From: an uncultured Gammaproteobacteria bacterium
GTDB lineage: Bacteria > Patescibacteriota > Microgenomatia > UBA12405
Direction: 5' to 3'
DNA length: 33,282 nucleotides
Assembly (NCBI GenBank): GCA_964464785.1
Contig: CAYXLS010000001.1
Coordinates: 49,698 to 82,979, forward strand
Shown: positions 9,181 through 28,452 of the stretch, one piece after another
How positions within the stretch are numbered: position 1 is the stretch's first letter
Layout: the number at the start of each line of letters is the position of its first letter
Position numbers and translations under genes: made by a program
The notes under the pieces: generated by a model
Databases searched by the model: none
Seen by the model: only the letters and a program-made list of their open reading frames with translations
Told to the model about the DNA's origin: nothing

Positions 9181-11055
9181 ATGCCAATTTTGAATGATAT
9201 TAGAAATGTTGCGGTTATTGCCCATGTGGACCATGGCAAGACTACTTTGGTTGATGCACTTCTCAAACAAACTCATACTTTTAGGGAAAATCAGGATGAA
9301 ATGATGATGGATAGAATTATGGATAGTAATGATCTGGAAAGAGAAAAAGGAATCACAATTTTGTCAAAAAATACATCTGTTTTTTACTCTCCTTTAAATC
9401 AAGACTTGAAAAATCAAAATAAGGCTATAAAAATAAATATAATTGATACTCCAGGACACGCAGATTTTGGCGGAGAGGTAGAAAGAGTTTTAAATATGGT
9501 TGATGGGGTATTACTAATTGTTGATGCAGCAGAGGGGCCCTTATCTCAAACAAAGTTCGTTTTGAAAAAAGCATTAGAGTCTAAATTAAAAGTAATATTG
9601 ATTATTAATAAAATAGATAGAAAAGACCAAAGAATTAAAGAAGTACTGACAGATACTGAAAATTTATTTCTGTCTTTAGTTGACGATTCAGATTTATTAG
9701 ATTTTCCAGTAATATATTGTGTTGGTAAAGATGGTAAGGCATATAAAAAAATACCCGAATGTTACGAAGATAAATCCGATATAAGTCCAATATTTGAACA
9801 AATTTTAGAGACGATACCAAATGCTGTTAAAAATATTGATCAACCTTTTCAGATGTTGGTATCATCTTTTGAAAAAAATGAATATTTAGGAAGGTTGGCG
9901 TTGGGAAGAATAAACCAAGGAATAATTAAAAAAGGAATGATGGTATCTCTTGTTAATAGTAATCAAAAAACAAAAAGTAATTATAAGGTAGAAAGAATGT
10001 ATGTTAACGAAGGGATAAAAAAAGTTGAAGTAGATGAGGCAGGTTGTGGAGAAATTGTATATATTGCTGGTATTCCAGAAATCGAAATAGGACAAACTTT
10101 GACTAGTATAAATTTTCAAGTAGCTTTACCATCAATTGAAATTTCTCCACCAACTATTAAAGCAAGTTTTGGACCAAATACTAGTGTTTTTGCCAAAGAG
10201 GAAGCCAAATTTTTAACAAGCCGAGAAATAAAAGAGAGATTGAAAGAAGAAGTTGAAACCAATCTTGGTTTAAAATTAGAAGACGATCCAGTTGATAGTA
10301 TTCGAATGATTGTATCTGGAAGAGGAGAACTTCATTTGGCAATACTAATTGAAAAATTACGTCGAGAAAATTATGCCTTAGAAATTGGTAAACCTGAAGT
10401 TATTTATAAAGAAATTGAGGGAAAAATTCTTGAACCATTTAACGAAATGACGATTTTAACACCAGAAGATTTTGTGGGGACGATAACTGCAGAAATGGGA
10501 AAGAGAAAGGCAGAGATGCTCGATATGCATACTGATGAAAAAATTGGGATAAAAATGATTTATAAAATTAGTGAGCGAAATGCTTTAGGGTTAAGAAGTA
10601 TTTTGATGACTGAAACAAAAGGATTAATTTCAATATCTTCTTTTTTTATAGGATATGAACAAAAAAAAGAAGATAATAATAAAGATAGAAACGGAGCATT
10701 GATTGCTTCAGAGTCAGGTAAAGCCCTATCTTATGGTTTGGATCTAGCTCAAAAAAGAGGGATAACATTTGTGGAGCCAACCGAAATGGTTTACGAAGGT
10801 CAAGTAGTCGGGATTAGGCCAGTATCGGGTGACTTGGAAATTAATGTATGTAAAGGAAAGCAACTTACAAATATGAGGGCGGCCGGGAACGATGATTCGA
10901 TTATTTTGGCACCAGCTGTAAAATATTCATTGGAAGAGTGCCTAGATTTTATAAATAATGATGAATTGATTGATGTGACCCCAAAGCAAATAAGAATTAG
11001 AAAAAAAATATTAACAAAAGTTGATAGAGTTAGAGCCGAGAGACAGAATCGCTAA
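9181..11055 (+). CDS. typA: Translational GTPase TypA/BipA
   Basis: G1 motif [10 protein letters not shown]3 motif [12 protein letters not shown] motif. The length and C-terminal region are typical of BipA. Confidence 0.93.
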
Positions 11056-13490: not shown

Positions 13491-13711
13491 TTTAATTAGC
13501 CAAATTTAGGATAACAGCATTTTTTGAAGTGTCATAAGAAATATATGCCGTATAGATATGACATCTCAAATTTGTATATTGATTAATACTATAACACTTT
13601 TTATATAGACCGGGTGCCCTTAATCACGGAAAAGGTACCTGTGCTCTGTAAGACAATAGTTTATATTATGATGATGACTATTTTTAGACCGAATAATATA
13701 AAAAAGTAAAC

Positions 13712-14542
13712 TTATTCTGACGTAGTCTCTAATTTTGCTACCAATGTTTCAAATTGATTTAATAGGGGGTGTTCCCAATGTTTCTTAGCCATTGTTAAAA
13801 CTGACTTTTCAAACCATAGCTTCTTTTCTTTCCCTCTGTTAAATTTCCCCCAAAGTGAAGGTCCTTCTTTCTCGTATTGATCAAAGAATGACTGAAGATT
13901 GCATATTTTGTCCATAATACTGACGGAAATGGCATTTTCCCCGCCCTTTTCTACTGAAGCAATATATTTTTCCTTTTTCTTTTCCCAGTCTTTTTTATCA
14001 GATAAAGCTTCGTCATTAGAGACTGCCTTAACTATCGACAAAACACCACTGCCACATTTTTCTAAAATTTCTTTTTCTGTACATTTTGTATCTTCCAAAA
14101 GATCATGACAAAAACCGGCAACCACTACTTCAAGTGGAAATTTTGCCTTCCATAACTTATACCCAACCTCTAACGGGTGTTCTAAATAAGGGTAACCGTC
14201 ACCTTTTCGAGTAGCTCCACCATGATAATCTCGGATAAGTAAAACTGCTCCCATAACACCTGGCAAAAGTATTAAGCTTGATCTGAAGATTGCTCCGTGA
14301 GGGTGAACAATCTCAAATTCGGTTGCCCTATCTTCGGCTTTTAGTTTCCAATCTAAATAGGACTTCATTGTGGGGTTTTCTTTAGAAAATCCAATAATAG
14401 CTTGATCAAGTAGTTGCTCAATATTGTTTGAACGAATACAGTCTAAATACCTCTCGTCGTCGAATATGTCAGCATAGACGTAGGAGTCTGTTACATCAAT
14501 CTTAAGTAACGCGTAACGATATTTATCGAATAAGTTGTTCAT
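13712..14542 (-). CDS. RelA/SpoT-type HD-domain protein (small alarmone hydrolase-like) with an ~95-aa N-terminal extension
   Basis: YHGGATRKGDGYPYLEHPLEVGYKL ... FCHDLLEDT matches the (p)ppGpp hydrolase HD domain signature. There is no synthetase domain. Confidence 0.7.
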   Translation of the reverse strand: MNNLFDKYRYALLKIDVTDSYVYADIFDDERYLDCIRSNNIEQLLDQAIIGFSKENPTMKSYLDWKLKAEDRATEFEIVHPHGAIFRSSLILLPGVMGAVLLIRDYHGGATRKGDGYPYLEHPLEVGYKLWKAKFPLEVVVAGFCHDLLEDTKCTEKEILEKCGSGVLSIVKAVSNDEALSDKKDWEKKKEKYIASVEKGGENAISVSIMDKICNLQSFFDQYEKEGPSLWGKFNRGKEKKLWFEKSVLTMAKKHWEHPLLNQFETLVAKLETTSE

Positions 14543-14590: not shown

Positions 14591-14650
14591 AATTACCCTT
14601 TAGTTTATCCATCATGAACTTAATTAGTACTATTTAGAGTAAGGGTCTTC

Positions 14651-14784
14651 TGGAATGTTGCTCAGATTGAAAGGTGGATTAAAGGTTATATAGTGCTCGC
14701 TGAATGGAACAGATTCAGAACTATTTTCACTGTTTGATGCTCCCCGTGCTGGATTCAATCAGGACTGCAATGTGTGGATTATAA
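14651..14784 (+). repeat. ORF-tail relic copy A (long form, interrupted by a 44-nt insertion)
   Basis: 14651-14698 reads WNVAQIERWIKGYIVL. A 44-nt insert at 14699-14742 is bounded by GCTC direct repeats and carries the hairpin CTGAAT-GGAACAG-ATTCAG. 14740-14784 reads LPVLDSIRTAMCGL followed by a stop. Confidence 0.8.
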
Positions 14785-14819
14785 ACTAAAACAACCCACC
14801 GAAACCGATGGGTTGTTTG
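14781..14819 (-). terminator. Intrinsic terminator of the secreted-protein gene
   Basis: Minus strand reads AAACAACCCA, loop TCGGTTTCGG, TGGGTTGTTT (10-bp stem, 14789-14818), followed by TAGTTTAT. Confidence 0.7.
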
Positions 14820-14837
14820 AATAAATTAATTTGTTAA

Positions 14838-15998
14838 TTAATTGTCTTTTTTATTCCCTTTAGCATTTGGATTGCTTTGAATCCAACTGACACAATCTCC
14901 TTGATTTTTAAAGATTGGTTTATAAAATGTTTTCCAACCATTATTTTTACAATCATCTTTTAATGTTGGTGTATTTTTTACCGTGACTGTGTGCCAATCA
15001 ACTGAACCAGTATCTTTATTATCGGCAGCATCTCTGGCTTCCAGTTTTACAGTATAGTTACCTTCGGGGATAAATGTTGTATCCCAAGATAAAAGTAATT
15101 TATCAGTAAATGATGTGGTGTCATTAACTACTCCTGGACCAGCAACTGTTACGCCACTAGAGTTTTCAATAACAAACCAATAGTGATGAGGATTTATATC
15201 TGTTACTGAACCTTTTATTTCTACTATTCCAGAAACAGTAAAACCATCTATTGGAGTAGTAATTTCAACGTCAGGTGCAGTCCAATCGGCTGTAATACTA
15301 CACTCATTTGACCATTCTGAATAGTTTCCAAAATTATCTTTAGCTCTTACCTTAACAATATGAAGACCTTCATTTAAAGAACCACGATATTGTGAGGTTG
15401 TAAAAAATGGTTTCCAATCACCTCTTGTACCATCGGTTTTAGGATAATTAATCCAATATTCATAACCAGTAATTGTTCCACCAACAACTGTTGAATCTGA
15501 CCAATCAACTGTGACCATTTTGGCGTTAGTGATGGCTCCACAGTTTAGTTCAGGACTATGAAATCCAGTTACAGTTGGTGTTGTTGGGAGTGTTTTTACA
15601 TCAAATCTTGTCCAGTCAAAACGCTCATCTCCTTCTGCGCCAAAAACCATTCTTACTTCTATATACTCACTTGCAAAAATATCTTTTGTTTTTGTAGAGT
15701 TATTAACACAGACAAAAGGATATAAACCATCTGTTACTAAAGTATTATAATTTGCCCCACTTGCCTGACTAGTATCACCATCTGTTCTGTATTCAAAACA
15801 ACTGTTAAATCCTCTAGTGCTTACAAATTCTAATTTTGCTGAGCCAACATTTTTTTCAAGTTGATTAACATGTGCCCAACCATTAATACGATTAATGTCG
15901 TTCGTACTTGGCGTAACAGCATTTACTGCTGCATAAACAGGAATAGCGACAAATGCCAATGCGGCAAGTGCCATAAATAATGATAATAATTTTTTCAT
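14838..15998 (-). CDS. Secreted protein with FN3/Ig-like beta-sandwich repeats and a Cys-containing C-terminal motif
   Basis: Signal peptide MKKLLSLFMALAALAFVAIPVYA. Ig/FN3-like segments are present (TITGYEYWINYPK..., VEITTPIDGFTVSGIVEIKGSVTD). The C-terminus is DCKNNGWKTF...FKNQGDCVSW. An AAGGA Shine-Dalgarno lies upstream. Confidence 0.7.
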   Translation of the reverse strand: MKKLLSLFMALAALAFVAIPVYAAVNAVTPSTNDINRINGWAHVNQLEKNVGSAKLEFVSTRGFNSCFEYRTDGDTSQASGANYNTLVTDGLYPFVCVNNSTKTKDIFASEYIEVRMVFGAEGDERFDWTRFDVKTLPTTPTVTGFHSPELNCGAITNAKMVTVDWSDSTVVGGTITGYEYWINYPKTDGTRGDWKPFFTTSQYRGSLNEGLHIVKVRAKDNFGNYSEWSNECSITADWTAPDVEITTPIDGFTVSGIVEIKGSVTDINPHHYWFVIENSSGVTVAGPGVVNDTTSFTDKLLLSWDTTFIPEGNYTVKLEARDAADNKDTGSVDWHTVTVKNTPTLKDDCKNNGWKTFYKPIFKNQGDCVSWIQSNPNAKGNKKDN

Positions 15999-16111
15999 TT
16001 CCTTTTTCCTTCAATAAATTTGTAACTGTTAAGTTGTAGGATTATTTGAAGTGAAAGTCAAGCTGCCTGAATAGTGATTTATTGCCTATATTATGGGTAT
16101 ATTTTATCTAG

Positions 16112-16156
16112 CTCCCCGCCTTGGACTCAATCAGGACTTCGGTGAATGGGATTTAG
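16112..16156 (+). repeat. ORF-tail relic copy B (short form)
   Basis: LPALDSIRTSVNGI followed by a TAG stop. An in-frame TAG at 16109-16111 precedes it directly. Confidence 0.8.
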
Positions 16157-16183
16157 TTTGTGGAGTAAATCCAAATTGGAAAT

Positions 16184-16369
16184 TCATTTTTTGATAAGAT
16201 TTAAGCACGCAATTCTCGCAGCATCGCTTCCCATTTTTAGACAATCCATTTTTTGTTCTTGAAAAGACTTTGGAACTAATTCTTTGTATATCTTAATTCC
16301 AAAGTAAAAAGAAACTAAAATACAAGTGATGGTAACAAAAATATTTTGAGCGTTAAATTGTCTCTTCAT
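16184..16369 (-). CDS. Small single-pass membrane protein, hypothetical
   Basis: 61 codons with an ATG start, one TM (IFVTITCILVSFYFGI) and two Cys in the tail. It is the only ORF in its module. Confidence 0.4.
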   Translation of the reverse strand: MKRQFNAQNIFVTITCILVSFYFGIKIYKELVPKSFQEQKMDCLKMGSDAARIACLNLIKK

Positions 16370-16443
16370 TTTTTATATAAATAATAGTTGGTTAAGGATA
16401 TCAAAAATTTATTGATTTATTTGTCCCCAAAACCTCATTTTTT

Positions 16444-16473
16444 TTGACATTTATATTTTATACACAATATTCT
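16444..16473 (+). promoter_or_regulatory. Possible plus-strand promoter upstream of relic copy C
   Basis: TTGACA at 16444-16449, an 18-nt spacer, then TATTCT at 16468-16473. A transcript from here would cover copy C and be antisense to the 3' end of the HNH gene. Confidence 0.25.
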
Positions 16474-16504
16474 GGTCCCCAGTAGTCACAATTATCCTTC
16501 CCGT

Positions 16505-16594
16505 TGGAATGTTACTTGGATAGAAAAGTGGGTTAAGAATTATTTAATACTCCCCATCCTGGACTCAATCAGGACTGCTGTGTGTAGATTATAA
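16505..16594 (+). repeat. ORF-tail relic copy C (long form, contiguous frame)
   Basis: WNVTWIEKWVKNYLILPILDSIRTAVCRL followed by a TAA stop. The frame is open from 16448 but contains no ATG. Its TAA (16592-16594) abuts the HNH stop (16589-16591), giving TTATAA. Confidence 0.8.
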
Positions 16595-17101
16595 ACTGTA
16601 TAGTTCTGAATTATTAGGGTTTTCTTTAATATTGATTAAAGATGAAAAATGAAGCGACTCGTGACATTTTCTGCATAAAGTTATCACATCTTTTTTAGTC
16701 TCATTTCCAATGTTCTCGTAATTCAAATGATGGAGATTGAGCATTTCAGTACCACCGCATTTTTCGCATTTGTTTTTCTTAAACTTATTCTTAGTTTGTT
16801 CCCAAATTTCACTATGAAGATACATCCCATATTCATTTTTATTAAGAGGTAGTTTGGTAATTTTAAATTCTTCCTTTATTTTCCATTTATAACACCCTGA
16901 GTTTGCAATTACCCCAATTTTTCCAGGTTTACCATAAAAAAAATATTGTCCAATAGCATACCCATATGGCCAATTTTTAATCTTTATACTTTTGATAAGT
17001 ACGTAATGCCCACTAGTTTCACTCCACGAATCTGATACTGCCTTAAATGGTAATTTTTCACCGTTTTCTCTCCATAGCTCAAAAAGGTTTTTTGAATCCA
17101 T
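16589..17101 (-). CDS. HNH endonuclease with an uncharacterised N-terminal domain
   Basis: The C-terminal CEKCGGTEMLNLHHLNYENIGNETKKDVITLCRKCHESLH is a CxxC...HH...N...CxxCH HNH motif. Confidence 0.75.
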   Translation of the reverse strand: MDSKNLFELWRENGEKLPFKAVSDSWSETSGHYVLIKSIKIKNWPYGYAIGQYFFYGKPGKIGVIANSGCYKWKIKEEFKITKLPLNKNEYGMYLHSEIWEQTKNKFKKNKCEKCGGTEMLNLHHLNYENIGNETKKDVITLCRKCHESLHFSSLINIKENPNNSELYSL

Positions 17102-17278
17102 AGTGTAATAAGATGCCCATACTTTAGATAATGCTCTATTATACCGCCAATTTAATTATTTACAAAATTTTGTATTTTCAGTTATTTTTTTACCACAAGA
17201 TGAACAATACGTTGTTAAGTTGATTATATTACATTTTGGAGTAAAAATAAGATAAATCTGTGCGCTTGAATAAAATAA

Positions 17279-17323
17279 TCCTCCACCTTGGACTCAATCA
17301 GGACTGCTGTGTGGGTTGTATGA
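17279..17323 (+). repeat. ORF-tail relic copy D (short form)
   Basis: SSTLDSIRTAVWVV followed by a TGA stop. An in-frame TAA at 17276-17278 precedes it. It ends 10 nt before the stop of the gene at 17333. Confidence 0.8.
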
Positions 17324-17332
17324 CAGAAGTTG

Positions 17333-17887
17333 TTAATCAAATTTAACAAGTTCATGAATTTTTGCCAAAGCTTCTCTTGCTAGATTATTATCATTAAAAG
17401 CATCAGCTATAGTTAATTGTGTCATATAAATCAAAATATCAACATGAACCTTGCTAATCAGCAAAGAACCTATCATTTTAATAGTAATGTTTTCTTCAAT
17501 TAATGAGTCCATTACATCAAAAGTAAAGCGGGTTAGTAGGTTGCCTGAATCCTCTGCTTCATTATAACGGTTTATTAATGACTCATATTTATCTTTAAAT
17601 GGACTACAATAGGCTTCGGTAAGCATCGGGAAAAATTTATTAGCATCTTCTTTGGTAATTAAATTATTGTTTAGGGCAATATTTGGTATTATTTTTATTT
17701 GAAAACTTGAAACAGGAAACACGCAGTTTTCCATATATTTGTCTTTGATTATGATTTTATTATTCCCAAAAAGATCTTTCCCATTAGATAAGTCATTTTT
17801 TACAATATTTATCCAATTACTTCTATGTATAGTAAGTGTGTCTCTTATATTAGATATTTTTGGAATCCAAAAAAGTGATTTAAGCAT
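17333..17887 (-). CDS. Hypothetical cytoplasmic protein (operon gene 5 of 5)
   Basis: ATG start 13 nt after the upstream stop. There is no TM and no motif I recognise. Confidence 0.6.
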   Translation of the reverse strand: MLKSLFWIPKISNIRDTLTIHRSNWINIVKNDLSNGKDLFGNNKIIIKDKYMENCVFPVSSFQIKIIPNIALNNNLITKEDANKFFPMLTEAYCSPFKDKYESLINRYNEAEDSGNLLTRFTFDVMDSLIEENITIKMIGSLLISKVHVDILIYMTQLTIADAFNDNNLAREALAKIHELVKFD

Positions 17888-17900
17888 AAATTGGTATGAG

Positions 17901-18545
17901 TTATAAATTTCCTGCTTTAATTTCCTTACGAACTAAAGCATTAAAAGTTGTAGACTGTTCTACTTCTTTTTTATATTTACTTAAGTCCATAACAGTTCTT
18001 TTACTCATATATGTATTAACCCTATCTTTTAATTCAAAAGGCAAGGGGCGGTCATCACCCTTTGTGTTACTCGTATCTTCCGGATCACCATAGAGAGGAT
18101 AATATTTCCTCAATCTATCCATGGCTTCATCCATTGATAAATTATTATTTTGCATGTAATTAATCATGCAGGCCATATGGAGTTCGTTATCATATTCTAC
18201 AGTTACCCACCGTTCAATATCACATAGATTCCACCAGAGAGATATATCCTCATCTGTTACACCCTCCTTTCTTTTTGTAGGTATTTCTTTACAAATTGAT
18301 TCTGCATATTTTTTGACTAGTTCATCGTCAGTTTTAGTAACACCTAAAATAATATCTCCCATGATTTTAGGTAAATTGTTATATGTTCCTGCTTTTTTAG
18401 ATTGCTCAATTGCTCTATCAAGTAAGTCTTCTGCGGCTTTTTTAGCATCCTCCTCAGACATACCTTGAGAAGTGTAACCTTGAGTATAAATATTAATTAA
18501 TTCATTCTCTTCACTTTTATATTTTGAGAAGTTAAATAGTCCCAT
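17901..18545 (-). CDS. Hypothetical acidic cytoplasmic protein (operon gene 4 of 5)
   Basis: ATG start 20 nt after the upstream stop. It looks helical. It contains YYPLYGDPEDTSNTKGDDRPLPFELKDRV, and I recognise no family. Confidence 0.6.
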   Translation of the reverse strand: MGLFNFSKYKSEENELINIYTQGYTSQGMSEEDAKKAAEDLLDRAIEQSKKAGTYNNLPKIMGDIILGVTKTDDELVKKYAESICKEIPTKRKEGVTDEDISLWWNLCDIERWVTVEYDNELHMACMINYMQNNNLSMDEAMDRLRKYYPLYGDPEDTSNTKGDDRPLPFELKDRVNTYMSKRTVMDLSKYKKEVEQSTTFNALVRKEIKAGNL

Positions 18546-18565
18546 ATTTTTTATTAATTAATAAC

Positions 18566-19696
18566 TTAGATTGAATGTACCCTATCTTCAAGAATGGTTT
18601 TATATTGAATTTGAATTTTTTTCATCACATCAGAAGTAAATTTAGGGTTATCTCTTATTGACCGGATATCATATCTTCCATCGGCAAGTTTATATACCCA
18701 AACAGTGAATATTTGATCAGGTTTATCTTGAAATATAATTGAAATTTCTACTCCCCCGACAATACTGTCGTTTATTGAAAATACAATAAATTTACTTTTA
18801 TAATAATTTTTATCAAATGAAGCTAAACCTCCTGTATAATCTCCTATCTTGTGAGTTTCAATGACTAGTTCTGGAGAGTCCATACCAACATTTGTACCAT
18901 CCAGATATCCATTTAAAACCTTACGAATATGAAGTACATAAGGATCTTTTGTTGTTTGATAGTAATCCTCTAATTGATCTTTTGTAAATACAATAGGTTC
19001 AACTTTTGTTGATTCAGGTGGTATTTGCCAATCAAAGGCTCCGTAGGTGCTAGGAATCGTTGTATTTTCCTCAGTACATCCTTTTGGTGTTGGAACGATA
19101 ATAATTTTTTTTCTCCAATCAAATAATGTATCTAACTGATCATAAAAATCATTGTATTTATGTACAGCATCATCCTGTTGCTTCCTTATTTCATCATAAT
19201 TGGACATTAATTCGTCGCTACTAATCTTTTTATCCCAAAGATTTAATATACTTTGAGCGTCATTAAGATAATATTTTGTCATTTCCATTTGATAATCAAA
19301 AAATTTCTTAAAATACCAAGGTTCAATCAGCTTATAATCTAGACGATTAATAAAACTATTTTGCTTCTCAATCCAATTATTTTCTTCAGCAACATATTTT
19401 CTCATTTCAGAGATATAGTCGCCGATAAATGTTTGAAGATCTTCTTTTTTGTATTTTTCTGGAAATTTTGTATAGTCAATATACTTTAAATATGAGTTTT
19501 TGTAGGCAATACGAGGTGGGTTAACATTGGTACACCGGTACTCATATATTTTATTTCCAATTATTGAGAGGGAATGAAGTTTGTAAAGATAAACACCAAA
19601 AATTAAAATAGATATACCAATTAAAATTAAAAATATCTTAAATATTTTATTCTTATTCATTTTTGTTCTAATTACTAGGAGTATACCTCTTTTCAA
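18566..19696 (-). CDS. Membrane-anchored protein with a large extracytoplasmic domain, hypothetical (operon gene 3 of 5)
   Basis: One N-terminal TM (IFKIFLILIGISILIFGVYLY). The ORF-track start at 19696 is TTG, and the ATG at 19660 (MNKNKIF) is an alternative. Confidence 0.6.
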   Translation of the reverse strand: MKRGILLVIRTKMNKNKIFKIFLILIGISILIFGVYLYKLHSLSIIGNKIYEYRCTNVNPPRIAYKNSYLKYIDYTKFPEKYKKEDLQTFIGDYISEMRKYVAEENNWIEKQNSFINRLDYKLIEPWYFKKFFDYQMEMTKYYLNDAQSILNLWDKKISSDELMSNYDEIRKQQDDAVHKYNDFYDQLDTLFDWRKKIIIVPTPKGCTEENTTIPSTYGAFDWQIPPESTKVEPIVFTKDQLEDYYQTTKDPYVLHIRKVLNGYLDGTNVGMDSPELVIETHKIGDYTGGLASFDKNYYKSKFIVFSINDSIVGGVEISIIFQDKPDQIFTVWVYKLADGRYDIRSIRDNPKFTSDVMKKIQIQYKTILEDRVHSI

Positions 19697-19719
19697 TTAA
19701 ATTTATGTTATTTATAACC

Positions 19720-19911
19720 TTATTTATTTCTCAAATTAAATTTAACCCACAACTCTGCTAAACCAGATAAGTTATTGGCGATTTCTGTTACATCATCATC
19801 AGTAAGTGCTCTTTTGTATAAAGGCTCAAACATATTAATAACCTCTTCTTTCAATTCATCACTTAGCCAATCTTTATATTTAATTGGTATTACTTTTTGG
19901 GAACATTTCAT
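19720..19911 (-). CDS. Small acidic hypothetical protein (operon gene 2 of 5)
   Basis: 63 codons, with an ATG 13 nt after the upstream stop. It is tightly packed between its neighbours. Confidence 0.5.
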   Translation of the reverse strand: MKCSQKVIPIKYKDWLSDELKEEVINMFEPLYKRALTDDDVTEIANNLSGLAELWVKFNLRNK

Positions 19912-19924
19912 AATTATTTTTAAT

Positions 19925-20470
19925 TCAAAACTCCATTGATTTAGTTGTTCCTACCACTTCAATAGTTTTAATATCAATATTTTCCATACAATGTTTTTGT
20001 CCAACTTGCCAGTAGACACAGTCATCCTCACCTTTTGTACCTGTTATTTTGAATACCGAATCTCTGTTGCCTTCAATAAATTTTACCCATTTATCAGTTA
20101 GCGCCAAATCATCTGGCACATTAATAGGCATAGCCCAAAACCAAGCATATTGATTGTCAGGTTCAAGTACTTTATGTGTTTTTATGTCATACCACCTAAA
20201 CCTAACTTCTCCAGAAGTGGAATTCTTTCTTACAACACCATAATAGATTATAAGTGAACCTGTATCTTTTGGAAAACTTAACATATTACTACCACCTGGT
20301 ATATAAGACCCCTCAACTTTATTTTCGTTTACAACAGGTGTTTTAATAACAACCTCTTTATTACCTTTATTTTGGATATAATTTACAACCTTATAACCTA
20401 TACCTAAAACAACTAGGATAAAGATTAGTTTGAGTATATTTTTATTTATATTTTTATATATGGCACTCAA
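19925..20470 (-). CDS. Membrane-anchored hypothetical protein with a beta-rich ectodomain (operon gene 1 of 5)
   Basis: N-terminal TM (ILKLIFILVVLGIGY). The start is TTG and no in-frame ATG lies nearby. It begins 60 nt downstream of the GmrSD-like gene. Confidence 0.55.
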   Translation of the reverse strand: MSAIYKNINKNILKLIFILVVLGIGYKVVNYIQNKGNKEVVIKTPVVNENKVEGSYIPGGSNMLSFPKDTGSLIIYYGVVRKNSTSGEVRFRWYDIKTHKVLEPDNQYAWFWAMPINVPDDLALTDKWVKFIEGNRDSVFKITGTKGEDDCVYWQVGQKHCMENIDIKTIEVVGTTKSMEF

Positions 20471-20530
20471 TGAAATTTGTTATTAATAATGGTTTTAACC
20501 TTACTTATATTAATCTGATAATTTTTTTTA

Positions 20531-22657
20531 TCAAGTAAACCTAGTGACTAAATATTCATTTATTTCTCTAATACCTAGTTCCTGCGAAGAATTACCACTA
20601 CGAACATAAAATTTATCAACACTTTGATTATTATCAGAAATTTTTAAATATAAAGGTTTATTACCTTTTGCGATATCAATCTGGCAGATTTCTTTATCTG
20701 TTACTTGAATAAATTTTATAGTTAATGCTGATGTAGCAAAATTTATCCCAAAAGATTGGTTGATTAAATGTCTCAAATGTAATTCAAATTCATCTTTTGT
20801 ACCATCAAGTGATACATAATCTCTTTGTAATCCTAAGATTTCACCTTCATCGTTAACCCCTATTATAAGTGTTCCGCCTTCTCCATTAGAAAATGCAGAA
20901 ATTGATTTAAGAATTACTGTTTCTATTTTTTTATCAATACTTTCACTGATGTAATTCCATCTTAATGACGACTTAAATTCAAGTTCATTACTCTCACCCT
21001 TATTTATAATATCTTCTATTGATACTGCTGTAACTGATTCCTCTGTTTTCGTTATTCCTTCTAAAAATTTATTCATTTCATTTGATAATAATTTTCTTCG
21101 TGCTATCAAAAAATCTTCAAATCTGTCTAATTCCCAAAGAGCTTCACCTTCCGGAATACATTGAAGTTTTAAGGCTTGTGGGTACTTTTCCTTTACAGAT
21201 TTTAAATAATCTTTTGCTTGCTTGGCACTTTTACCCCTATTAGCTAATTGAGTTAAAATTGCCCTATTGGTTATTTCCTGGGCTAATGAATATTTATGAC
21301 GATTATTCATGTTGTATCCGTGGGACTTTAATATAGAGTAAGGAAAAATATGATCCCATTCCAACATATATCTGCTCCCCATATTCTGTCTAATACTTAG
21401 CCCAGTGGTCAAACAAACCGCATTTTTACTTTTAAAATACCATCTCATCATACTATAAAGAGCATTACTAACACCTGCTCCTTCAAATTCATCCGGAGAT
21501 ATTTCTAATGGTCTTTCTTGTTTAATTGTGTTTAACATTTCATCAAAAGGGTTTTTTGAATTAGCAACAATTCCCAAATCTTTATCTAATTTTTGTTGTA
21601 ATTGGCTAATATATCTTTGTCTAATTTGTGAATAATAAAACCATTTTATTATTTTCTTTATTTCTATTTGAGTTAATGATTCATTTCCTTTTTTAAATAC
21701 ATAAGAAATAATAGGTACTATCGCATAAACAGAATTAATTTCACTTGAGTGATCTATATATGCTTGAGATCTAAGTAAACTAACAACATAATCAAGTATT
21801 TTTTCATCAAGCTGTTTCCAGGCTTCTTTTAGTTTTACTTCGTTATCACTTGAATGAAGTTTTGTCATGTCAGAACCCATGTTGTATAACATACCCAATA
21901 AGCAATAAATAATAAAATCTAGTTTGAAGTTGAAACCACTTTCTTTAAGTGCTATTAGTTTTTCTTTAAATGTTTCTCTAGCTTTAGGCCAATAACCTGA
22001 TATTTGAGCTAGTGCTAATTCAGCATCCGTCAAATTAACTCCACTAGCATTAACTATATAAAAAATATTAATAGCTTCTCTAAGAGAAGCTTTAATTGGA
22101 ACTGATTGTTCAACAAACTCTTTATCAGGGATACTATCAATTGCACGAAAATTATCAGCTATTCTGTCTTCATCTTCTCTCGTTAAAGTAACGCCCTTAT
22201 CTTGTAAACCGCGAGTAATATCTCTTTCTCTAATGTTCTTTTGAAAAATATCGGTAATATTGACCCAATATGGATTGCTATCCATCATATTTTTTTTGTA
22301 ATATTGAAGGTCTAGGTCGTTAATATTTACATATAGCCCCCTAGGATCGTTTAGTATTTCACTTTCTTTGTAATAAGAAGGTATTTTATTTCTAATTAGT
22401 AAATATAAAGTTGTAATTCTTTGTTGACCATCAAGAATTATTTTTACTGCTCCTTGTCTTGGATCATATTGCCAATCACCTTTTAATTCTGGTGGTGTAT
22501 TTGTATCCCAAGTTAACATAGTTCCGGTGGGATAATCTTTTATCAAAGATGAAATTAAATCTTTTGCATCTTCTCTCTTCCAAACATATTCTCTTTGAAA
22601 AGCTGGAACAAATAATTGATTGTCGTCTATTTTGTCTAATATTTGATTAATTTTCAT
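20531..22657 (-). CDS. GmrSD-family (DUF262 + DUF1524) nuclease fused to a C-terminal AlbA_2/Schlafen-like domain
   Basis: DUF262: FVPAFQREYVW and ILDGQQRITTLYLL. DUF1524/HNH-like: EWDHIFPYS...EITNRAILTQLANRGK. C-terminal 155 aa (20534-20998): ESNELEFKSS...ISAFSNGEGGTLIIGVNDEGEILGL...FYVRSGNSSQEL. Confidence 0.85.
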   Translation of the reverse strand: MKINQILDKIDDNQLFVPAFQREYVWKREDAKDLISSLIKDYPTGTMLTWDTNTPPELKGDWQYDPRQGAVKIILDGQQRITTLYLLIRNKIPSYYKESEILNDPRGLYVNINDLDLQYYKKNMMDSNPYWVNITDIFQKNIRERDITRGLQDKGVTLTREDEDRIADNFRAIDSIPDKEFVEQSVPIKASLREAINIFYIVNASGVNLTDAELALAQISGYWPKARETFKEKLIALKESGFNFKLDFIIYCLLGMLYNMGSDMTKLHSSDNEVKLKEAWKQLDEKILDYVVSLLRSQAYIDHSSEINSVYAIVPIISYVFKKGNESLTQIEIKKIIKWFYYSQIRQRYISQLQQKLDKDLGIVANSKNPFDEMLNTIKQERPLEISPDEFEGAGVSNALYSMMRWYFKSKNAVCLTTGLSIRQNMGSRYMLEWDHIFPYSILKSHGYNMNNRHKYSLAQEITNRAILTQLANRGKSAKQAKDYLKSVKEKYPQALKLQCIPEGEALWELDRFEDFLIARRKLLSNEMNKFLEGITKTEESVTAVSIEDIINKGESNELEFKSSLRWNYISESIDKKIETVILKSISAFSNGEGGTLIIGVNDEGEILGLQRDYVSLDGTKDEFELHLRHLINQSFGINFATSALTIKFIQVTDKEICQIDIAKGNKPLYLKISDNNQSVDKFYVRSGNSSQELGIREINEYLVTRFT

Positions 22658-22686
22658 ATTTTTGAATGATTATAAATTTATAGTAT

Positions 22687-25600
22687 TTAGTTTTGATTTT
22701 TAAAGTCTAATTTTGGCAAGGAATTAACAATATCAACCGTTTGAACACTGACATTAATGATACTGAGCAATAAATCTAAAATATATTTAGGATTGCCAAC
22801 TTCTTCTGCCCAGTCATTTGGGTCATTTTTGATGCCACTGTCTTTATTTGTGGTGACTTGATAGCGTTCCATTATCCATTCAATTGCACTCTTACCATTT
22901 ACAATATATTCATAAGCCTTAACAGGAATCTTTGAAATGATGATTTTATTGTTATAAATGATTGTGTCTTTTTGATTTTTTTTAGGAAATCGCATTTTAT
23001 CTACTCTAAAATCATTACTTTCCTCACCTGTAACTTCAACATCGTTATAAGCTGGTACTTTTTCATAATTGATGTGTAGATCACCTAGTTTTCTACCGGC
23101 TTTACTAAATTTCCAAAAATCATTAAGATCTTCAACAAGTGGAATACGAGGTAACATTTTTTTTAAATCACTAGAGAACATTGTTTTGTACTCTGGACTA
23201 TGTAAAAAGCCATAAACATAATAAAAAATATCTTCTTTATTAATATTTTTACCATACATTTTTTTAGCCCTATTTAAAATAAAATCTGATACTCCATCCT
23301 TGCAGATATATTCGCTTTTCCCTGGTTCTTCAAATAAACCTATGTTTTGTTTCTCGCGCTCTTCATAATAATTTAGAGGAAAGCACTGAGAAGCAGCATT
23401 AATACCAAGATCCGGAATTTTATCTACCATCAAGACTGAAAAATCTTTTGTGCTGCCATTTCCAGGTACACATATTAACTTATTTGTAATATTTTTTTGG
23501 GGAAACAACTTTGGTAGTTGATAAACACGATTAATCAAACTTCTATTAAAATATACTTTTTGATTAAAAAATGGACGATAGATTGAATTTGTGATTGATT
23601 CGTTTTGAAATTGATATTTTTTATATTTGGCAAGGTCAACTTTTTGAGCATAATCCCAAGTAATATTTTTTGAATCAGTATCAATGAAATTATCTAACTT
23701 AAGATCAGGATTATTTTTTTTCTCAATTATAAAGCTATCAACTTGTTTATTAAAAAAATTTATTGTTTTATTAATATTATTTGAAAGTTCATTTGTTGAG
23801 GAGTTGTAACTCCAAGCATCCCTATTTGTTTTTAGTCCATTGGAATAAAAAGTAAAAAAAGAAGTGGCTAATTGATTTTTATTTTTTCCAAGTTCTATAA
23901 ATTCACTAAATAAATCATTGCGTTGACTTATCCAATCTCCGTGTTTGTTTGGGTATATACTATCCCATTTTATTGCCGAATTACTTATAGAACTAAAATT
24001 TTTAATGATGTTTATTTTTTCTTCTCTGTTTTTATAATCCTCTATTTCGTGATAATAAATTTGAGCCTTTTCGTTTGTTTTTTTAGGATTTTTAACTAAT
24101 AGAGTAATTGAAATGGGAGTCCGTGAACCACCTCCAAAAACATTACCTGCCTCTTTTCTTCTTAATTCACCTTGAGTACGAGCATTCCCTCTGGTATTAA
24201 ATATATAAATCGTTGAAAACTCTTTTTCTAAACATTTACGAAAACCATCGGTACTATTACTATCCAACCAGGATCCATTAGAAACAAAAGCAATAATTCC
24301 ACCATTTTGTGGATCCAGCCGATCTGTACTCCACCTAAAAGCTTTTATATAAGAATCGTATAATGAATTTTTTAAAATAGCGTTTGATTCAAAAGCATAA
24401 GTTTTTGCTATTCTTGAATCTAATTTATCATATTTTTGATTTTGAGCGTTATCATTAGCGGCTTTTTGTCCAGCAGAATATGGAGGATTACTAATTATTA
24501 CCCTAATAGGGCTCTTTTTTTGTTTTTGTACTTGTTCTGAATTTTGTGGAAACATTTTTGAAAAAAGTCTTTCACTAGAGTCAGTTTCGCCTAATTGAAA
24601 TGTATCAGTAAGACAGATACCATTAAAAGCTTTATACTCATTAGCCTTTGTTAGGTCGTGGTAAACATTTTCAATATTTACAGCTGCTATGTAATAAGCC
24701 AATAAAACTATTTCGTTAGCATGAATTTCGGACTCGTATTTTCTTTTTAAATCTTTGGATTCTATTAATCCACTTTGAAGTAAACGCGTTATAAATGTAC
24801 CAGTACCAGTAAACGGATCTAAGATGTGAACATTGTCATCAGTAAAAGTACAATTAAATTCCTTCTGAAGAACTTCGTTAACAGAATGTATTATAAAATC
24901 AACAATTTCTACTGGAGTATAAACAATTCCTAACCTCTCTACGGTTTTGGGAAAAGCCGTTTTAAAAAATTTATCATATAACTCAATTATTATTCGCTGT
25001 TTCCCTTCTGCATTATTTATTCCTTCGGTTCTTTTTTTAACCGATTCATAAAATTTTTGAAGCACTTCTAAATCTTTGTTTGATGTTTCTCCTTCTAATA
25101 AATCAAGCATTTTTTGCATTGATATTGAAATTGAATTATTTTTTACAAAAGAATATTTTTCAAATAATGCCTCAAAAACAGGTTTGGTAATAATATGTTG
25201 AGAAAGCATTTCTATTGCATCTTGTTCAGTAATACTGGGGTTAATATTCTTCCTTAATCCGTTTACAAAATCATTAAAGGCTTGGTGATCAGAAGCATCT
25301 TCTTTAACAAGTTGGCTAATTCGTTTTGCTTGTCTTTCGGCAATTTCAGCAATGTTTTTTGCCCACTGTTCCCAATAAGTGCGATCCCCTACCTTCTTTA
25401 CCATTTTGGCAAAAACAACATTTTGAAGTTGGTTAAATTGCAAAGATAATTGACTTGAGAGATTTTTTGCAGTCTCTTGACTTGATCCGTCATCAGTAAC
25501 CAAAACCGGCTTACCATCATCATCAAAAGAAAATACCCCTCTTCCAACCGATATTTGTGCTGGTCTATTTTTATTCAGTTCAATTTTATTAACAGTGGCA

Positions 25601-27567
25601 TTAAAACGATCGTCGTGTGCCCTTAGGGCATTTAGTACTGACCAGACCACTTTATAGCGATCATTATTATCTAGTGCTTTATCAGCTTCAACATCAGAAG
25701 GTATAACAATAGGAATAATAATATATCCATATTTTTTGCCAGGTGACTTTCGCATTACCCTACCAACTGATTGAACTACATCAACTTGTGAATTACGAGG
25801 AGACAGAAAAACAACTGCGTCTAAAGAAGGGACGTCTACACCTTCACTAAGACAACGAACATTTGTTAGAACACGGCATTCATTATTATCTATATCAGGA
25901 GCCTTCAACCATGACATTAATTCGTTTCGCTCTGGAGCTGACATTGTTCCATCAATGTGTTTGGATTCAATTGAAACCATACGCTCTCTTTCACTATTAG
26001 GTAGCGATTTAACATAAGCGTTGGCAGTTGAATCAAAAATCTCAGTAATTTTTTTAGAATCGGCAATTGTTTGACAAAAAGCAACCGCTCTTTTCATTGG
26101 TTCTGGGTCGCTTTCCTTAACTAATCCCTCATCGCCCAATATTTGCTTTGAAAGGGCATTAATACATCCTATTAATTTCGGTACATCGTCAGTATTAATT
26201 TCTCCTTCGGTTCCCGTGCTAGCTTTTTGAATATTAGGAGGAACATCTTTATCACTAACAGTAAGAACTAAAACCTTATAATCAGTTAAAAGGTCTTTTT
26301 CAACGGCTTCACCAAAGCCAATACGGTAGATTTCTTCACCATAAATTTTTGGATCATCCATAGAACACAAAACAGCGTCTGCTTGTTCTGCTCTAGTCTT
26401 AACATCTTCATTATATAGTCTAGGAGTCGCTGTCATGTACAATCTTTTTTTTGCACGAATAAAATTATTATCATGCACCTTAACAAAAGATGATGAATCT
26501 TCTTCAGAAAGAGTTACGCCAGTAGTTCTGTGTGCCTCGTCACAAATTATCAAATCAAATTCTCCAAATTTATCATTCTGATCAATTAATTTTTTTTGAA
26601 CTTGTGAGATTACTTCAATTGATTGATATGTTGAAAAAACTACCGTCATCCCTTTATATTCAACTAAAGGTATGTAATGCAATTGATGAATAATATTATT
26701 TACGTCGGTTGACGCCGGTAATGCTAGATCAATGGTGCTGAAACTACCACTATCAAATTTTTTGATCTTATCACTAGAAACCTTTTCATCTGAACATATA
26801 CAAATTGCTTTTATTGGATCTTTTGCTTCACTAAACCACTCCTTGAGGGCTTGACCCAATAAAGCGATTGAAGGTACTAAAAATAAAATAAAACCAGTTC
26901 CGTTTGTTTCGTTTTCTGCAATTCGTAATGAATTGAAAGTCTTTCCAGTACCACATGCCATGATAAGTTTTCCACGATCTTCATTTTTAAAATATTCATG
27001 TGTTTTATCTAATGCTTCTTGCTGGTGAGGTCTTATTGATTTTTGGGGGTTTCTTGATGCATCACCGTAAATACCATCTTCTAGTTTTTGCCAATCAACT
27101 ACTGCCTCTTGTAAATCGTAAAGATTAATTCTCGTTACTGGTGGATCCTGGTTTTTAATCGCTTGTGTAGCGTTGGAACCCCACTTGTTAGTTGTTGAAA
27201 TCCATAGACGGTGAGAAAACCCCGTTGTTCTAAGGTTTTTATCTCTAAATTTACGACCTGAAGTAGATAAAAAACTATCAACTGCAGGTTTATCAATGAC
27301 AGCATTTTCGGAATAACATTTACATTGAATAGCCCAATAATCACCATCTACAGTAAACCCAATTAAATCAATTCCCGTATCAATACCACCTAAATCATCT
27401 TTACCGAAAAATTCGTCCCACATCCACACATCTTTAAAAATACTTGAATAAACCGGATCAGTAAGCAAATAACCTTTCATTAATTTCTCAAAACGATTCC
27501 CTTTATCGTGCTCGGAAAATGATATTTCTCTGTATTTATTTAGTATGTCTTGAAAAGATAAACTCAT
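22687..27567 (-). CDS. Type ISP restriction-modification enzyme (Mrr-like nuclease, SF2 translocase, N6-adenine methyltransferase, TRD)
   Basis: Nuclease: GIDLIGFTVDGDYWAIQCKCY. Helicase: MACGTGKTF, ICDEAHRTTG, QSVGRVMR. Methyltransferase: ILDPFTGTGTFI and ISNPPYS. C-terminal YQVTTNKDSGIKNDPNDW is a Type ISP tail. The size, 1626 aa, fits this class. Confidence 0.9.
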   Translation of the reverse strand: MSLSFQDILNKYREISFSEHDKGNRFEKLMKGYLLTDPVYSSIFKDVWMWDEFFGKDDLGGIDTGIDLIGFTVDGDYWAIQCKCYSENAVIDKPAVDSFLSTSGRKFRDKNLRTTGFSHRLWISTTNKWGSNATQAIKNQDPPVTRINLYDLQEAVVDWQKLEDGIYGDASRNPQKSIRPHQQEALDKTHEYFKNEDRGKLIMACGTGKTFNSLRIAENETNGTGFILFLVPSIALLGQALKEWFSEAKDPIKAICICSDEKVSSDKIKKFDSGSFSTIDLALPASTDVNNIIHQLHYIPLVEYKGMTVVFSTYQSIEVISQVQKKLIDQNDKFGEFDLIICDEAHRTTGVTLSEEDSSSFVKVHDNNFIRAKKRLYMTATPRLYNEDVKTRAEQADAVLCSMDDPKIYGEEIYRIGFGEAVEKDLLTDYKVLVLTVSDKDVPPNIQKASTGTEGEINTDDVPKLIGCINALSKQILGDEGLVKESDPEPMKRAVAFCQTIADSKKITEIFDSTANAYVKSLPNSERERMVSIESKHIDGTMSAPERNELMSWLKAPDIDNNECRVLTNVRCLSEGVDVPSLDAVVFLSPRNSQVDVVQSVGRVMRKSPGKKYGYIIIPIVIPSDVEADKALDNNDRYKVVWSVLNALRAHDDRFNATVNKIELNKNRPAQISVGRGVFSFDDDGKPVLVTDDGSSQETAKNLSSQLSLQFNQLQNVVFAKMVKKVGDRTYWEQWAKNIAEIAERQAKRISQLVKEDASDHQAFNDFVNGLRKNINPSITEQDAIEMLSQHIITKPVFEALFEKYSFVKNNSISISMQKMLDLLEGETSNKDLEVLQKFYESVKKRTEGINNAEGKQRIIIELYDKFFKTAFPKTVERLGIVYTPVEIVDFIIHSVNEVLQKEFNCTFTDDNVHILDPFTGTGTFITRLLQSGLIESKDLKRKYESEIHANEIVLLAYYIAAVNIENVYHDLTKANEYKAFNGICLTDTFQLGETDSSERLFSKMFPQNSEQVQKQKKSPIRVIISNPPYSAGQKAANDNAQNQKYDKLDSRIAKTYAFESNAILKNSLYDSYIKAFRWSTDRLDPQNGGIIAFVSNGSWLDSNSTDGFRKCLEKEFSTIYIFNTRGNARTQGELRRKEAGNVFGGGSRTPISITLLVKNPKKTNEKAQIYYHEIEDYKNREEKINIIKNFSSISNSAIKWDSIYPNKHGDWISQRNDLFSEFIELGKNKNQLATSFFTFYSNGLKTNRDAWSYNSSTNELSNNINKTINFFNKQVDSFIIEKKNNPDLKLDNFIDTDSKNITWDYAQKVDLAKYKKYQFQNESITNSIYRPFFNQKVYFNRSLINRVYQLPKLFPQKNITNKLICVPGNGSTKDFSVLMVDKIPDLGINAASQCFPLNYYEEREKQNIGLFEEPGKSEYICKDGVSDFILNRAKKMYGKNINKEDIFYYVYGFLHSPEYKTMFSSDLKKMLPRIPLVEDLNDFWKFSKAGRKLGDLHINYEKVPAYNDVEVTGEESNDFRVDKMRFPKKNQKDTIIYNNKIIISKIPVKAYEYIVNGKSAIEWIMERYQVTTNKDSGIKNDPNDWAEEVGNPKYILDLLLSIINVSVQTVDIVNSLPKLDFKNQN

Positions 27568-27653
27568 TTTTTTAGTTTAGCATTATTTATAATGATGTTT
27601 ATATTTTAGAAAATTAAAAAAAAATTACTATTAACAATATGGGATAATAATAT

Positions 27654-28151: not shown

Positions 28152-28246
28152 TTTTATTAATAATTTTTTATTACATCTTTAATTTAATCCTCTTCAGTAA
28201 ATGATTTCCAGGCATTCATTAAATCTTTTTTCTGATTAAATACATA

Positions 28247-28441
28247 TTAACCATCATTATAAATTCCTCGTTTATAAGTAACCCTTATATATATGCTCTT
28301 AAATCTTGCTGAGTTAGCTTGCGGAAAATTATAAATCTTTATTTTTTTTGACGACCGCCTACTTATTACCTTCCAATCGTTTTTTTTATAATTTTTATAA
28401 TAAAAAACAAGACCATTCTTTTCTATGTATCTTTTTGACAT
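28247..28441 (-). CDS. Small basic hypothetical protein
   Basis: 64 codons, with an ATG 11 nt after the ATPase stop, on the same strand as the operon. Confidence 0.35.
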   Translation of the reverse strand: MSKRYIEKNGLVFYYKNYKKNDWKVISRRSSKKIKIYNFPQANSARFKSIYIRVTYKRGIYNDG

Positions 28442-28452
28442 TTTGTTTTTAA

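Follow-up and report, generated by a model that had tools for sequence, protein, structure and literature searches.

Short one-directional DNA elements between the accessory genes of Microgenomates-type bacteria

The stretch analysed here, 33,282 nt of contig CAYXLS010000001.1 (hereafter the window), contains four consecutive gaps between minus-strand genes, each holding a copy of the same short plus-strand segment, and the locus raises the question of what this segment is and how it came to stand between one gene and the next. An earlier note on this DNA had read the four copies (A, B, C, and D) as relics of the tail of one plus-strand open reading frame (ORF), either scars of repeated site-specific insertion or the recombination sites of a cassette-capture system. 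Comparison with other contigs shows that the segment belongs to a family of short one-directional DNA elements located between accessory genes in Microgenomates-type bacteria of the candidate phyla radiation (CPR). With about even confidence, we interpret the repeats as double-stranded DNA recombination sites where accessory cassettes enter and leave a chromosomal array in these bacteria.

A family of elements with a common plan

The 19-nt core of the repeat, TGGACTCAATCAGGACTGC, was matched four times in the window at up to three mismatches, all on the plus strand, compared with no matches in 100 dinucleotide shuffles, and a repeat search of the window independently recovered the same family. 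The coordinates and sequences given for the four copies in the earlier note proved correct, as did the shared frame, LP(V/A/I)LDSIRT.. (SSTLDSIRT.. in copy D), which closes at the same codon with the stops TAA, TAG, TAA, and TGA, and the additional upstream block WNV..IE.W.K.Y shared by copies A and C. In-frame stops directly precede B and D, and C is open from 16448 only, again as described. The convergent minus-strand genes facing A to D are located at 14838-15998, 16184-16369, 16589-17101, and 17333-17887; their stops, said to lie 0-55 nt from the copies, were measured at 54, 28, -5 (an overlap), and 10 nt. The 44-nt hairpin-bearing insertion that was said to split copy A is really a third member of the family, T4, and not an insertion into the element. 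Copy A is made up of three tandem elements (T2, T4, and T1) and copy C of two (T2 and T1), giving seven sites within 2.7 kb, listed below with their supporting evidence.

14647..14699, plus strand: T2 element of copy A, degenerate core GTCTTC at 14645-14650, body TGGAATGTTGCTCAGATTGAAAGGTGGATTAAAGGTTAT; nhmmer with the T2 profile, E=5e-9, and alignment with copy C
14695..14738, plus strand: T4 element, core GCTCGC at 14695-14700 and then TGAA-TGGAAC-AGATTC-AGAACT; general regular expression and T4 profile, E=1.9e-10
14737..14789, plus strand: T1 element of copy A, core GCTCCCC at 14739-14745; homology to contig L017 begins at 14738
16110..16159, plus strand: T1 element of copy B, core GCTCCCC at 16111-16117
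16495..16553, plus strand: T2 element of copy C, core CCTTCCC at ~16495-16501; nhmmer, E=4e-14
16547..16599, plus strand: T1 element of copy C, core ACTCCCC at 16549-16555, directly after the T2 element
17278..17327, plus strand: T1 element of copy D, degenerate core ATCCTCC at 17278-17284

Read from left to right, the window array is T2-T4-T1, a gene for an immunoglobulin (Ig)-like protein, T1, a 61-aa ORF, T2-T1, an HNH gene, T1, and a five-gene operon. Profile and regular-expression scans found no copies in the 33-kb window outside 14647-17327.

An exact-pattern scan of 185,579 species genomes returned eight loci, seven of which share GCTCCCCGCCTTGGACTCAATCAGGACTGC... and include Shapirobacteria and Woesebacteria metagenome-assembled genomes (MAGs), the eighth being rejected as a chance match within an ORF; a scan of Joint Genome Institute (JGI) metagenomes returned 23 loci, 20 of them true matches. 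The T1 profile was built from the copies of these two scans. The labels L001-L040 denote the other element-bearing or compared contigs; all compared sequences are metagenome contigs, many copies lie at contig ends, and profile E-values were computed against a small local database. The profile search yielded 35 distinct T1 copies in CPR-type contigs of low GC content (~30% in the window), with one to four copies per locus. T2, which corresponds to the 16-codon extension of the earlier note, has the form GCTCCCC-N3-TGGGATAGTACTCGGATAGAAAAGTGGGTTAAGAACTAT and gave 19 matches, mostly standing alone. T4 was found by comparing two contigs, has the form GCTCG(C/A)-N3-5-TGGAACGATTTTAGAACTA, and gave ~20 matches with E<1e-3.

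The three types follow one plan, consisting of a 7-nt core, (T)G-CTC(C/G)CC, a variable linker of 3-5 nt, a pair of tandem half-sites spaced 11 nt apart, and a variable tail that grades into cassette-specific sequence. The half-sites are GGACT-N6-GGACT in T1, GGATA-N6-GGATA in T2, and GGAAC-N6-AGAAC in T4, and they co-vary by type at the DNA level (GGAC/GGAC, GGAT/GGAT, and GAAC/GAAC, respectively). The core and the right arm are conserved, and the sequence left of the core is unrelated between copies. A single regular expression for the shared plan gave 51 matches in the analysed sequence compared with 0-9 in shuffles, and within any locus these matches and the confident copies are all on one strand, the sole opposite-strand profile match being weak (E=0.49).

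The elements punctuate single-gene modules in ~25 further contigs, for example in L013 (T1, orf101, T4, orf139, T4, orf257, T2) and in L006, which has five sites in 4.4 kb. Tails end within a few tens of nucleotides of the stop of an opposite-strand gene in 27/39 T1 and 13/16 T2 cases, often overlapping the stop, and the tail co-diverges with the convergent gene, as observed for a DsbD-operon cassette in L003 and L005 versus L022. The reading-frame relation of element to convergent gene is random (11/8/8), on which ground translational coupling or readthrough from the convergent gene was rejected.

The elements are not universal in Microgenomates; none was found in six 13-20-kb loci of Daviesbacteria, Shapirobacteria, and Roizmanbacteria around the gene for a 101-aa protein (orf101). 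In Roizmanbacteria L036-L038 (~9930-9975) the core GGGGAGC precedes the promoter of this gene, as it does in T1 loci, but is joined to a GC-rich palindrome, GCCCCGATTTAATCGGGGC, a possible fourth site type. The T1 and T2 cores were not found in IMG/VR, and a viral origin was rejected on that basis. Neither the sequence nor a CPR cassette system was found described in the literature searched. Several element contigs (L001, L003, L005, L006, and L007) are titled Gammaproteobacteria, Methanoperedens, or Christensenellaceae despite a GC content of 30-40%, and some of the contigs suspected of mislabeling are near-identical under different names, the element being common to them and to CPR MAGs; these five contigs are probably mis-binned.

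Homology breaks at the core

In pairwise BLAST comparisons, homology blocks between genomes stop exactly at the core. L003 and L005 are 99.9% identical over 5.3 kb right of a T1 core (L003:508, L005:6020), and the sequences on its left side are unrelated. Homology is likewise bounded by the core between L012:3035 and L007:5138 and between position 14738 of the window and 8048 of L017, and it ends at a T2 core between L001 7032 and L002 3358. Module content differs in each of the pairs window and L017, L003 and L005, and L012 and L007, so that the invariant content among relatives that the earlier note had set against a cassette array is not what these contigs have. The Ig-like gene has a homologue in L017 that is placed between two T1 copies with different neighbors, and the same terminator hairpin follows T1 there.

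The same left flank can be joined to different element types. A 40-nt left flank with an ArsR-type promoter is 88% identical in L022 and L003 and is followed by T1 in L022 and by T4 in L003, the right sides being 50% identical. Similarly, a 65-nt module with the appearance of a promoter and ribosome-binding site stands before T1 in L014 but before T2 in L025, with flanks that are 88% and right sides that are 62% identical. Nothing but the core is common to the types at the joint, and these heterotypic junctions therefore cannot be products of homologous recombination. Different types are also joined at their cores in the gene-less tandems of copy A (T2-T4-T1) and copy C (T2-T1).

A natural indel of one cassette separates L003 and L005, contigs that are 99.9% identical. 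L003 has one T4 element, and L005 has two T4 elements flanking a 706-nt S-adenosylmethionine (SAM)-methyltransferase cassette, in which the gene is antisense to the element, its stop is 7 nt from the first T4, and a 76-nt promoter region precedes the second T4. The first T4 copy of L005 has the chromosomal left flank, TGCTCGC, and a TTT linker; in the second, the cassette left flank and TGCTCGC are followed by a CCT linker, as in L003. This distribution of the linkers indicates that the 8-nt core TGCTCGC, rather than the 21 identical nucleotides on its right, was the place of exchange. In the window, a truncated gene fragment (16404-16508) ends near an element core; its clear homology stops at the T2 core of copy C, where the intact gene reads CTCACC. 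The recurrence of the element between single-gene modules in ~25 other contigs, the homology ending at the core, the differing module content, and the cassette indel support the proposal in the earlier note of a cassette array with the repeat as its point of exchange.

For the repeats to act as recombination sites, the two tandem half-sites would presumably bind two recombinase subunits arranged head to tail, and strand exchange would occur in the adjacent 7-nt core. A cassette would bring its own promoter together with a single gene, or occasionally a few genes, and would carry one site at the gene's 3' end, with the tail of the site running into the stop codon. It would be excised via recombination of its own site with the upstream site and could be re-inserted at any core. 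Exchange at the core would join any left flank to any right arm, which would produce co-oriented arrays, heterotypic junctions, and gene-less tandems such as T2-T4-T1. The anatomy of the sites, the arrays, the breakpoints, the heterotypic joints, and one indel are shown directly; that a dedicated site-specific recombinase, rather than short-homology recombination, exchanges the cassettes is inferred.

Several points weigh against recombination sites. No recombinase recurs within 5-10 kb of ~25 arrays, and the site has no dyad symmetry about its core, which is unusual for sites of tyrosine or serine recombinases. Clean indels amount to n=1; in a second candidate, L014 versus L026, the crossover within a hybrid T2 falls in 23 nt of identical T2 sequence and not at the core. 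This candidate lies at a contig end, is given little weight, and may be due to homologous recombination or to misassembly. Orientation follows a strong rule that is broken in L016, where cassette genes and elements run in the same direction. Finally, this interpretation leaves the protein-coding look of the sites, described below, unexplained.

Both the lack of a nearby recombinase and the crossover in the L014/L026 hybrid would be expected if the elements were instead protein-binding or punctuation sequences (an operator-like site or an insulator) and the shuffling a by-product of short-homology recombination or transformation, comparable to repetitive extragenic palindromic (REP) sequences and bacterial interspersed mosaic elements (BIME), Correia elements, or BOX elements. 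Tandem half-sites 11 nt apart are typical for head-to-tail DNA-binding proteins, the gene strand of T1 contains TTGAGT, which in copies B and C is scored as a -35 box accompanied by a -10 further downstream, and the 65-nt promoter-like module often adjoins the core. We nevertheless consider this explanation unlikely, since homology over the 7 nt common to the types could not join one flank to T1, T2, or T4, and since the exchange between L003 and L005 occurred in the core and not in the longer identical block. Moreover, anything from ~20 to 180 nt separates the element from the next promoter or start, T2 has no -35-like hexamer, and it is the 3' end of the upstream gene, rather than the promoter downstream, with which the elements co-segregate. 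The canonical intrinsic terminator of the gene at copy A comes before the element, which is therefore not part of the upstream mRNA.

A coding-like signal

The resemblance of the sites to coding sequence was evaluated over 31 gap-free distinct T1 copies. Column entropy over 12 codons follows the order position 2 < 1 < 3 (0.30, 0.48, and 0.68 bits; permutation P=0.036), and in the frame of the earlier note 46 of 90 changed codons are synonymous (51%, compared with 27% expected and 33% in the next best frame), with P=0.001 (one frame) and P=0.006 (best of six frames) from alignment-column shuffling; as the copies are mutually related, these P values are optimistic. Codon 15 is a stop in 23/31 T1 copies (15 TAA, 5 TAG, and 3 TGA) and is never TGG, so that the coding signature, which in the earlier note hinged on the stop position of further copies, holds with all three stop codons in use. 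Related peptides can be read from T2, LP.WDSTRIEKWVKNYL, and from T4, L..WNDFRTI; the peptides that correspond to the signal are LPALDSIRTAVC and WNDFRTI. The coding-like signal is real and is accounted for by none of the models.

The model of the earlier note, which takes every copy for the displaced 3' tail of a single plus-strand target gene, left by a site-specific insertion bringing a replacement tail (as for SCCmec in rlmH and e14 in icd), draws on this synonymous excess and on the fixed stop at codon 15, and it would also accommodate the single orientation of all copies and the coincidence of both truncation points with CTCCCC. Searches for the gene argue against it. Two word-indexed searches of 5.8 billion protein clusters, based on shared 5-residue words, returned one candidate for the consensus T2+T1 peptide, which did not score, and no candidate for the T4 peptide. 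An exhaustive phmmer/HMMER scan, in which the 48-aa ORF of copy C was compared with 1.84 billion representatives, gave two matches, both of them translated tandem repeats; no real protein with the T1, T2, or T4 peptides was thus found in these databases. No in-frame ORF of more than 66 codons lies upstream of any copy, with 0-20 codons in most, and no long in-frame ORF enters complete copies. In the window, what comes before the leftmost element is a minus-strand HD-domain gene together with a complete fba, and not a truncated plus-strand gene. The cassettes have no integrase. In addition, the Arg and Asp/Asn codons co-vary between the types so as to keep the DNA half-sites and not the peptide (GAC..AGG-ACT, GAT..CGG-ATA, and AAC..AGA-ACT), a covariation that selection on the peptide does not predict, and the minus-strand frame with the same third positions is also partly "synonymous." The description of the copies as relics of one ORF tail is therefore unsupported, and we regard displaced gene tails as quite improbable.

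The fixed stop of T1 and its codon-like substitution pattern could alternatively mark a tiny gene for a peptide of ~15 residues, (M/L)LPALDSIRTAVCGL, convergent with its neighbor, such as a regulator or toxin with antisense coupling. CTC is preceded by ATG or TTG in 19/31 T1 copies and by ATG, TTG, or GTG in 13/18 T4 copies. This NTG, however, follows automatically from the conserved TG of the extended core, and the remaining copies have TGG, TAG, CAG, or GGG at the start position. With no Shine-Dalgarno-like sequence upstream, a divergent start codon only 20-24 nt away in several loci that leaves no room for a promoter, and no fixed stop in T2 and T4, such a gene is very improbable.

Returning to recombination sites, we tentatively suggest, at less than even confidence, a cassette-capture system of Microgenomates-type CPR bacteria independent of integrons, with short non-palindromic double-stranded sites (a 7-nt core and tandem half-sites) of at least three interchangeable types that would also be genuinely peptide-coding, as the C-terminal codons and stop of a gene expressed in some state.

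Known systems, the neighboring island, and cassette cargo

Other classes of repeat were considered for the element and rejected. A structured RNA was dismissed as the element has no Rfam match (at the gathering threshold and at E up to 10) and no covarying pairs; RNAalifold on 31 copies gave -2.36 kcal/mol with four pairs and 0 compensatory changes. Single-strand DNA folds of four window sites, on both strands, had z values of -0.26 to +1.51, no better than shuffles. The lack of a conserved fold indicates that the element is not an attC-type hairpin, a REP element, or a terminator. ARAGORN reported nothing on the elements, excluding a tRNA or transfer-messenger RNA fragment. Clustered regularly interspaced short palindromic repeats (CRISPR), with near-identical repeats of 24-48 nt evenly spaced by 25-50 nt, are inconsistent with spacings of 1372, 438, and 729 nt and a whole gene in each interval. 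Debris of insertion sequences (IS), which the earlier note had named as the alternative to its array, or of miniature inverted-repeat transposable elements does not describe the copies either, as they have no inverted partner and a single orientation, are clustered within 2.7 kb of 33 kb, and are accompanied by no transposase domain in the array ORFs.

The organization of the locus is most readily compared with integrons. Locus maps show co-oriented arrays of cassettes made up of an ORF and a site, and as in integron arrays these are mostly single-gene accessory cassettes with a short site at the gene 3' end that often overlaps the stop. One site direction, mixed site variants per array, and a cassette order that varies between relatives are shared with sedentary chromosomal integrons and with clusters of attC sites lacking integron integrases (CALINs), and the cargo of GNAT, NUDIX, methyltransferase, and defence genes is similar. 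Integron attC sites are imperfectly palindromic, fold in single-stranded form (R''-L''...L'-R'), and have conserved RYYYAAC and GTTRRRY ends. In contrast, the present sites do not fold and have no R''/R' boxes (RYYYAAC/GTTRRRY), the consensus lacking GTTRRRY; they conserve sequence and not structure across genera, their cassettes have their own promoters, and their hosts are CPR bacteria. No IntI-type integrase, attI, or Pc was seen in the flanks covered, beyond which the array heads possibly lie.

Direct repeats that read as the last codons and stop of a gene, arranged in tandem so as to part unrelated modules, are also known from SCCmec in rlmH and from prophage e14 and phage 21 in icd, and with SCCmec the window further shares a large serine recombinase. 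Unlike in those systems, no target gene runs into the first repeat, no protein with this tail was found, and the modules are single genes without a recombinase of their own, the serine recombinase being located in a separate island and absent from most loci. In site architecture the closest likeness is to the sfx sites of the R64 shufflon, recombined by the tyrosine recombinase Rci, which according to work attributed to Komano and co-workers are asymmetric, with a 7-bp core and one conserved arm, and lie in C-terminal ORF sequence. The present sites are likewise asymmetric, with a 7-nt core, GCTC(C/G)CC, one conserved arm, and a free left arm, and they likewise read as the C-terminal part of an ORF, so that recombination and coding constraints overlap. 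The sfx sites, however, are inverted and switch pilV C termini beside rci, whereas the present sites are direct and separate whole genes, with no rci-like gene or tyrosine recombinase nearby and no constant N-terminal ORF. Finally, the pdif modules of Acinetobacter plasmids are similar in being discrete modules with short conserved sites in varying contexts and no recombinase inside. A pdif site is a 28-bp dyad in which 11-bp arms for XerC and XerD enclose a 6-bp spacer, and such sites alternate in orientation. In the present elements the half-sites are tandem and not inverted and form no dyad, and the sites have a single orientation.

In the window, the gene order is fba, the HD-domain gene, the array, the five-gene operon, GmrSD/HEC-05, a Type ISP restriction enzyme, a primase-helicase pair, and a large serine recombinase. 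The recombinase (31284-32864, plus strand) was considered as the array enzyme and rejected, because it belongs to a separate island and because a similar gene is present only in the window and in one, L015, of the 27 pattern-derived loci; moreover, it lies on opposite sides of the array in these two. Among the 20 window ORFs Pfam gave no tyrosine recombinase, and none is among the recurrent families of 136 flanking ORFs, although the array heads, outside the sequence reached here, may lie beyond the flanks covered.

The island spans ~15 kb (window 17333-32864), ends with the recombinase, and carries the primase-helicase pair, the Type ISP enzyme, GmrSD/HEC-05, and the five-gene operon. The stop of the recombinase is 14 nt from that of a convergent SEC-C-motif gene (32879, minus strand), which is probably secA; a conserved secA-adjacent locus was rejected, as the sole match to L002 is the 19-aa SEC-C zinc motif. 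In L040, from another sample, the same backbone (recombinase, primase, helicase, and a 165-aa ORF) has a Type I HsdM in place of the ISP enzyme. Further islands with a large serine recombinase are located at L015 5043-6624, abutting a tRNA-Ala and adjoining a T1 element, and at L035 1-1691, with an OLD-family ATPase/UvrD-like helicase pair and a methylase/EcoO109I pair, adjoining the gene for the 101-aa protein.

The genes and other features in and around the window array are as follows.

13712..14542, minus strand: HD-domain gene (Pfam HD_4), left boundary of the array
14789..14818, minus strand: intrinsic terminator hairpin of the Ig-like gene, between the gene stop and the T1 element of copy A (terminator scan)
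14838..15998, minus strand: cassette gene for a secreted Ig-like domain protein of 386 aa (Pfam Big_3_3)
16184..16369, minus strand: 61-aa ORF, cassette content (ORF list), without a Pfam match
16404..16508, minus strand: pseudogene fragment, the last ~37 codons of a paralogue of 19925-20470, with an in-frame stop (blastx, E=7e-7, and alignment)
16589..17101, minus strand: HNH endonuclease gene, 170 aa (weak Pfam HNH match), its stop touching the tail of the T1 element of copy C
17159..17209, minus strand: 5' fragment of 17 codons, YCSSCGKKITENTKFCK, of a zinc-ribbon/CAP-domain gene like L024:372-1121 (blastx, E=1e-5, and Pfam of the L024 homologue)
17333..20470, minus strand: five-gene operon, without Pfam or PADLOC matches, the stop of the last gene 10 nt from the T1 element of copy D

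No element follows the HD-domain gene (13491-13711 inspected; profiles negative). The zinc-ribbon fragment is positioned between the T1 element of copy D and the HNH gene, which comes directly after the fragment as though substituting for the remainder of that gene. The five-gene operon (184, 214, 376, 63, and 181 aa), which is situated between GmrSD and the last repeat, in a stretch rich in defence genes, either opens the recombinase island or forms a multi-gene cassette, and it could be an uncharacterised defence system.

Across the arrays, the cassettes carry the usual kind of accessory cargo: SAM methyltransferases, GNAT, NUDIX, radical SAM, histidine phosphatase, and Ham1 proteins, as well as MFS transporters, an ArsR-thioredoxin-ArsP-DsbD operon, Mrr, an AAA_14/DUF4143 ATPase, and serine hydrolases. 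Many cassette genes have their own promoters, several of the leaderless type TATAAT-N5-7-ATG; TATAAT or TGnTATAAT is found 5-7 nt before ATG at L012 ~3036-3057, L016 3080-3096, L010 ~1004-1020, and L017 ~10640-10657, which suggests that leaderless mRNAs are common among these accessory genes.

The ~65-nt non-coding module noted above (..CCTCTATTTAACCATAACATAAAA.CGTAT..CGTATC.TT..) is found left of the core in six junctions (L006:172-240, L008:40-107, L014:532-600 and 2703-2770, L016:1345-1410, and L025:745-811). In four of the six it is directly upstream of a gene start, the genes concerned do not cluster together, and the L016 copy has no gene to drive; the module looks like a portable promoter and ribosome-binding-site unit. 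The AAA_14/DUF4143 cassette (L001 ~5805-5860; L002 ~4530-4583) has a near-perfect inverted repeat of 9-10 bp, AATTAGGCA-N7-TGCCTAATT, over a TTGACA box just left of the T1 core, probably an operator.

The 101-aa protein (orf101), whose gene is a neighbor of T1, is encoded at L012:3055-3360, L014:10276-10581, and L025:4555-4860 and is also present in L033-L038. It has 1444 homologues at E up to 1e-5 and no Pfam family, and it is 84-97% identical across Roizmanbacteria, Shapirobacteria, Daviesbacteria, and WWE3, which is unusually conserved for such divergent lineages. Several long hydrophobic stretches indicate that it is probably membrane-embedded.

The conserved 30-nt sites break assemblies, as seen in the many copies at contig ends, which is relevant to the binning of CPR genomes. 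The site consensus provides a handle for finding arrays, for cataloguing their cargo, including candidate defence genes, and for identifying the recombinase by co-occurrence. CPR bacteria, or Patescibacteria, have tiny genomes, and their acquisition of accessory genes is poorly understood; if the repeats are recombination sites, these bacteria would possess a dedicated platform for swapping single genes. Such a platform would represent a second, structurally unrelated solution to the problem solved by integrons, with sites recognized by their sequence and not as a folded hairpin.

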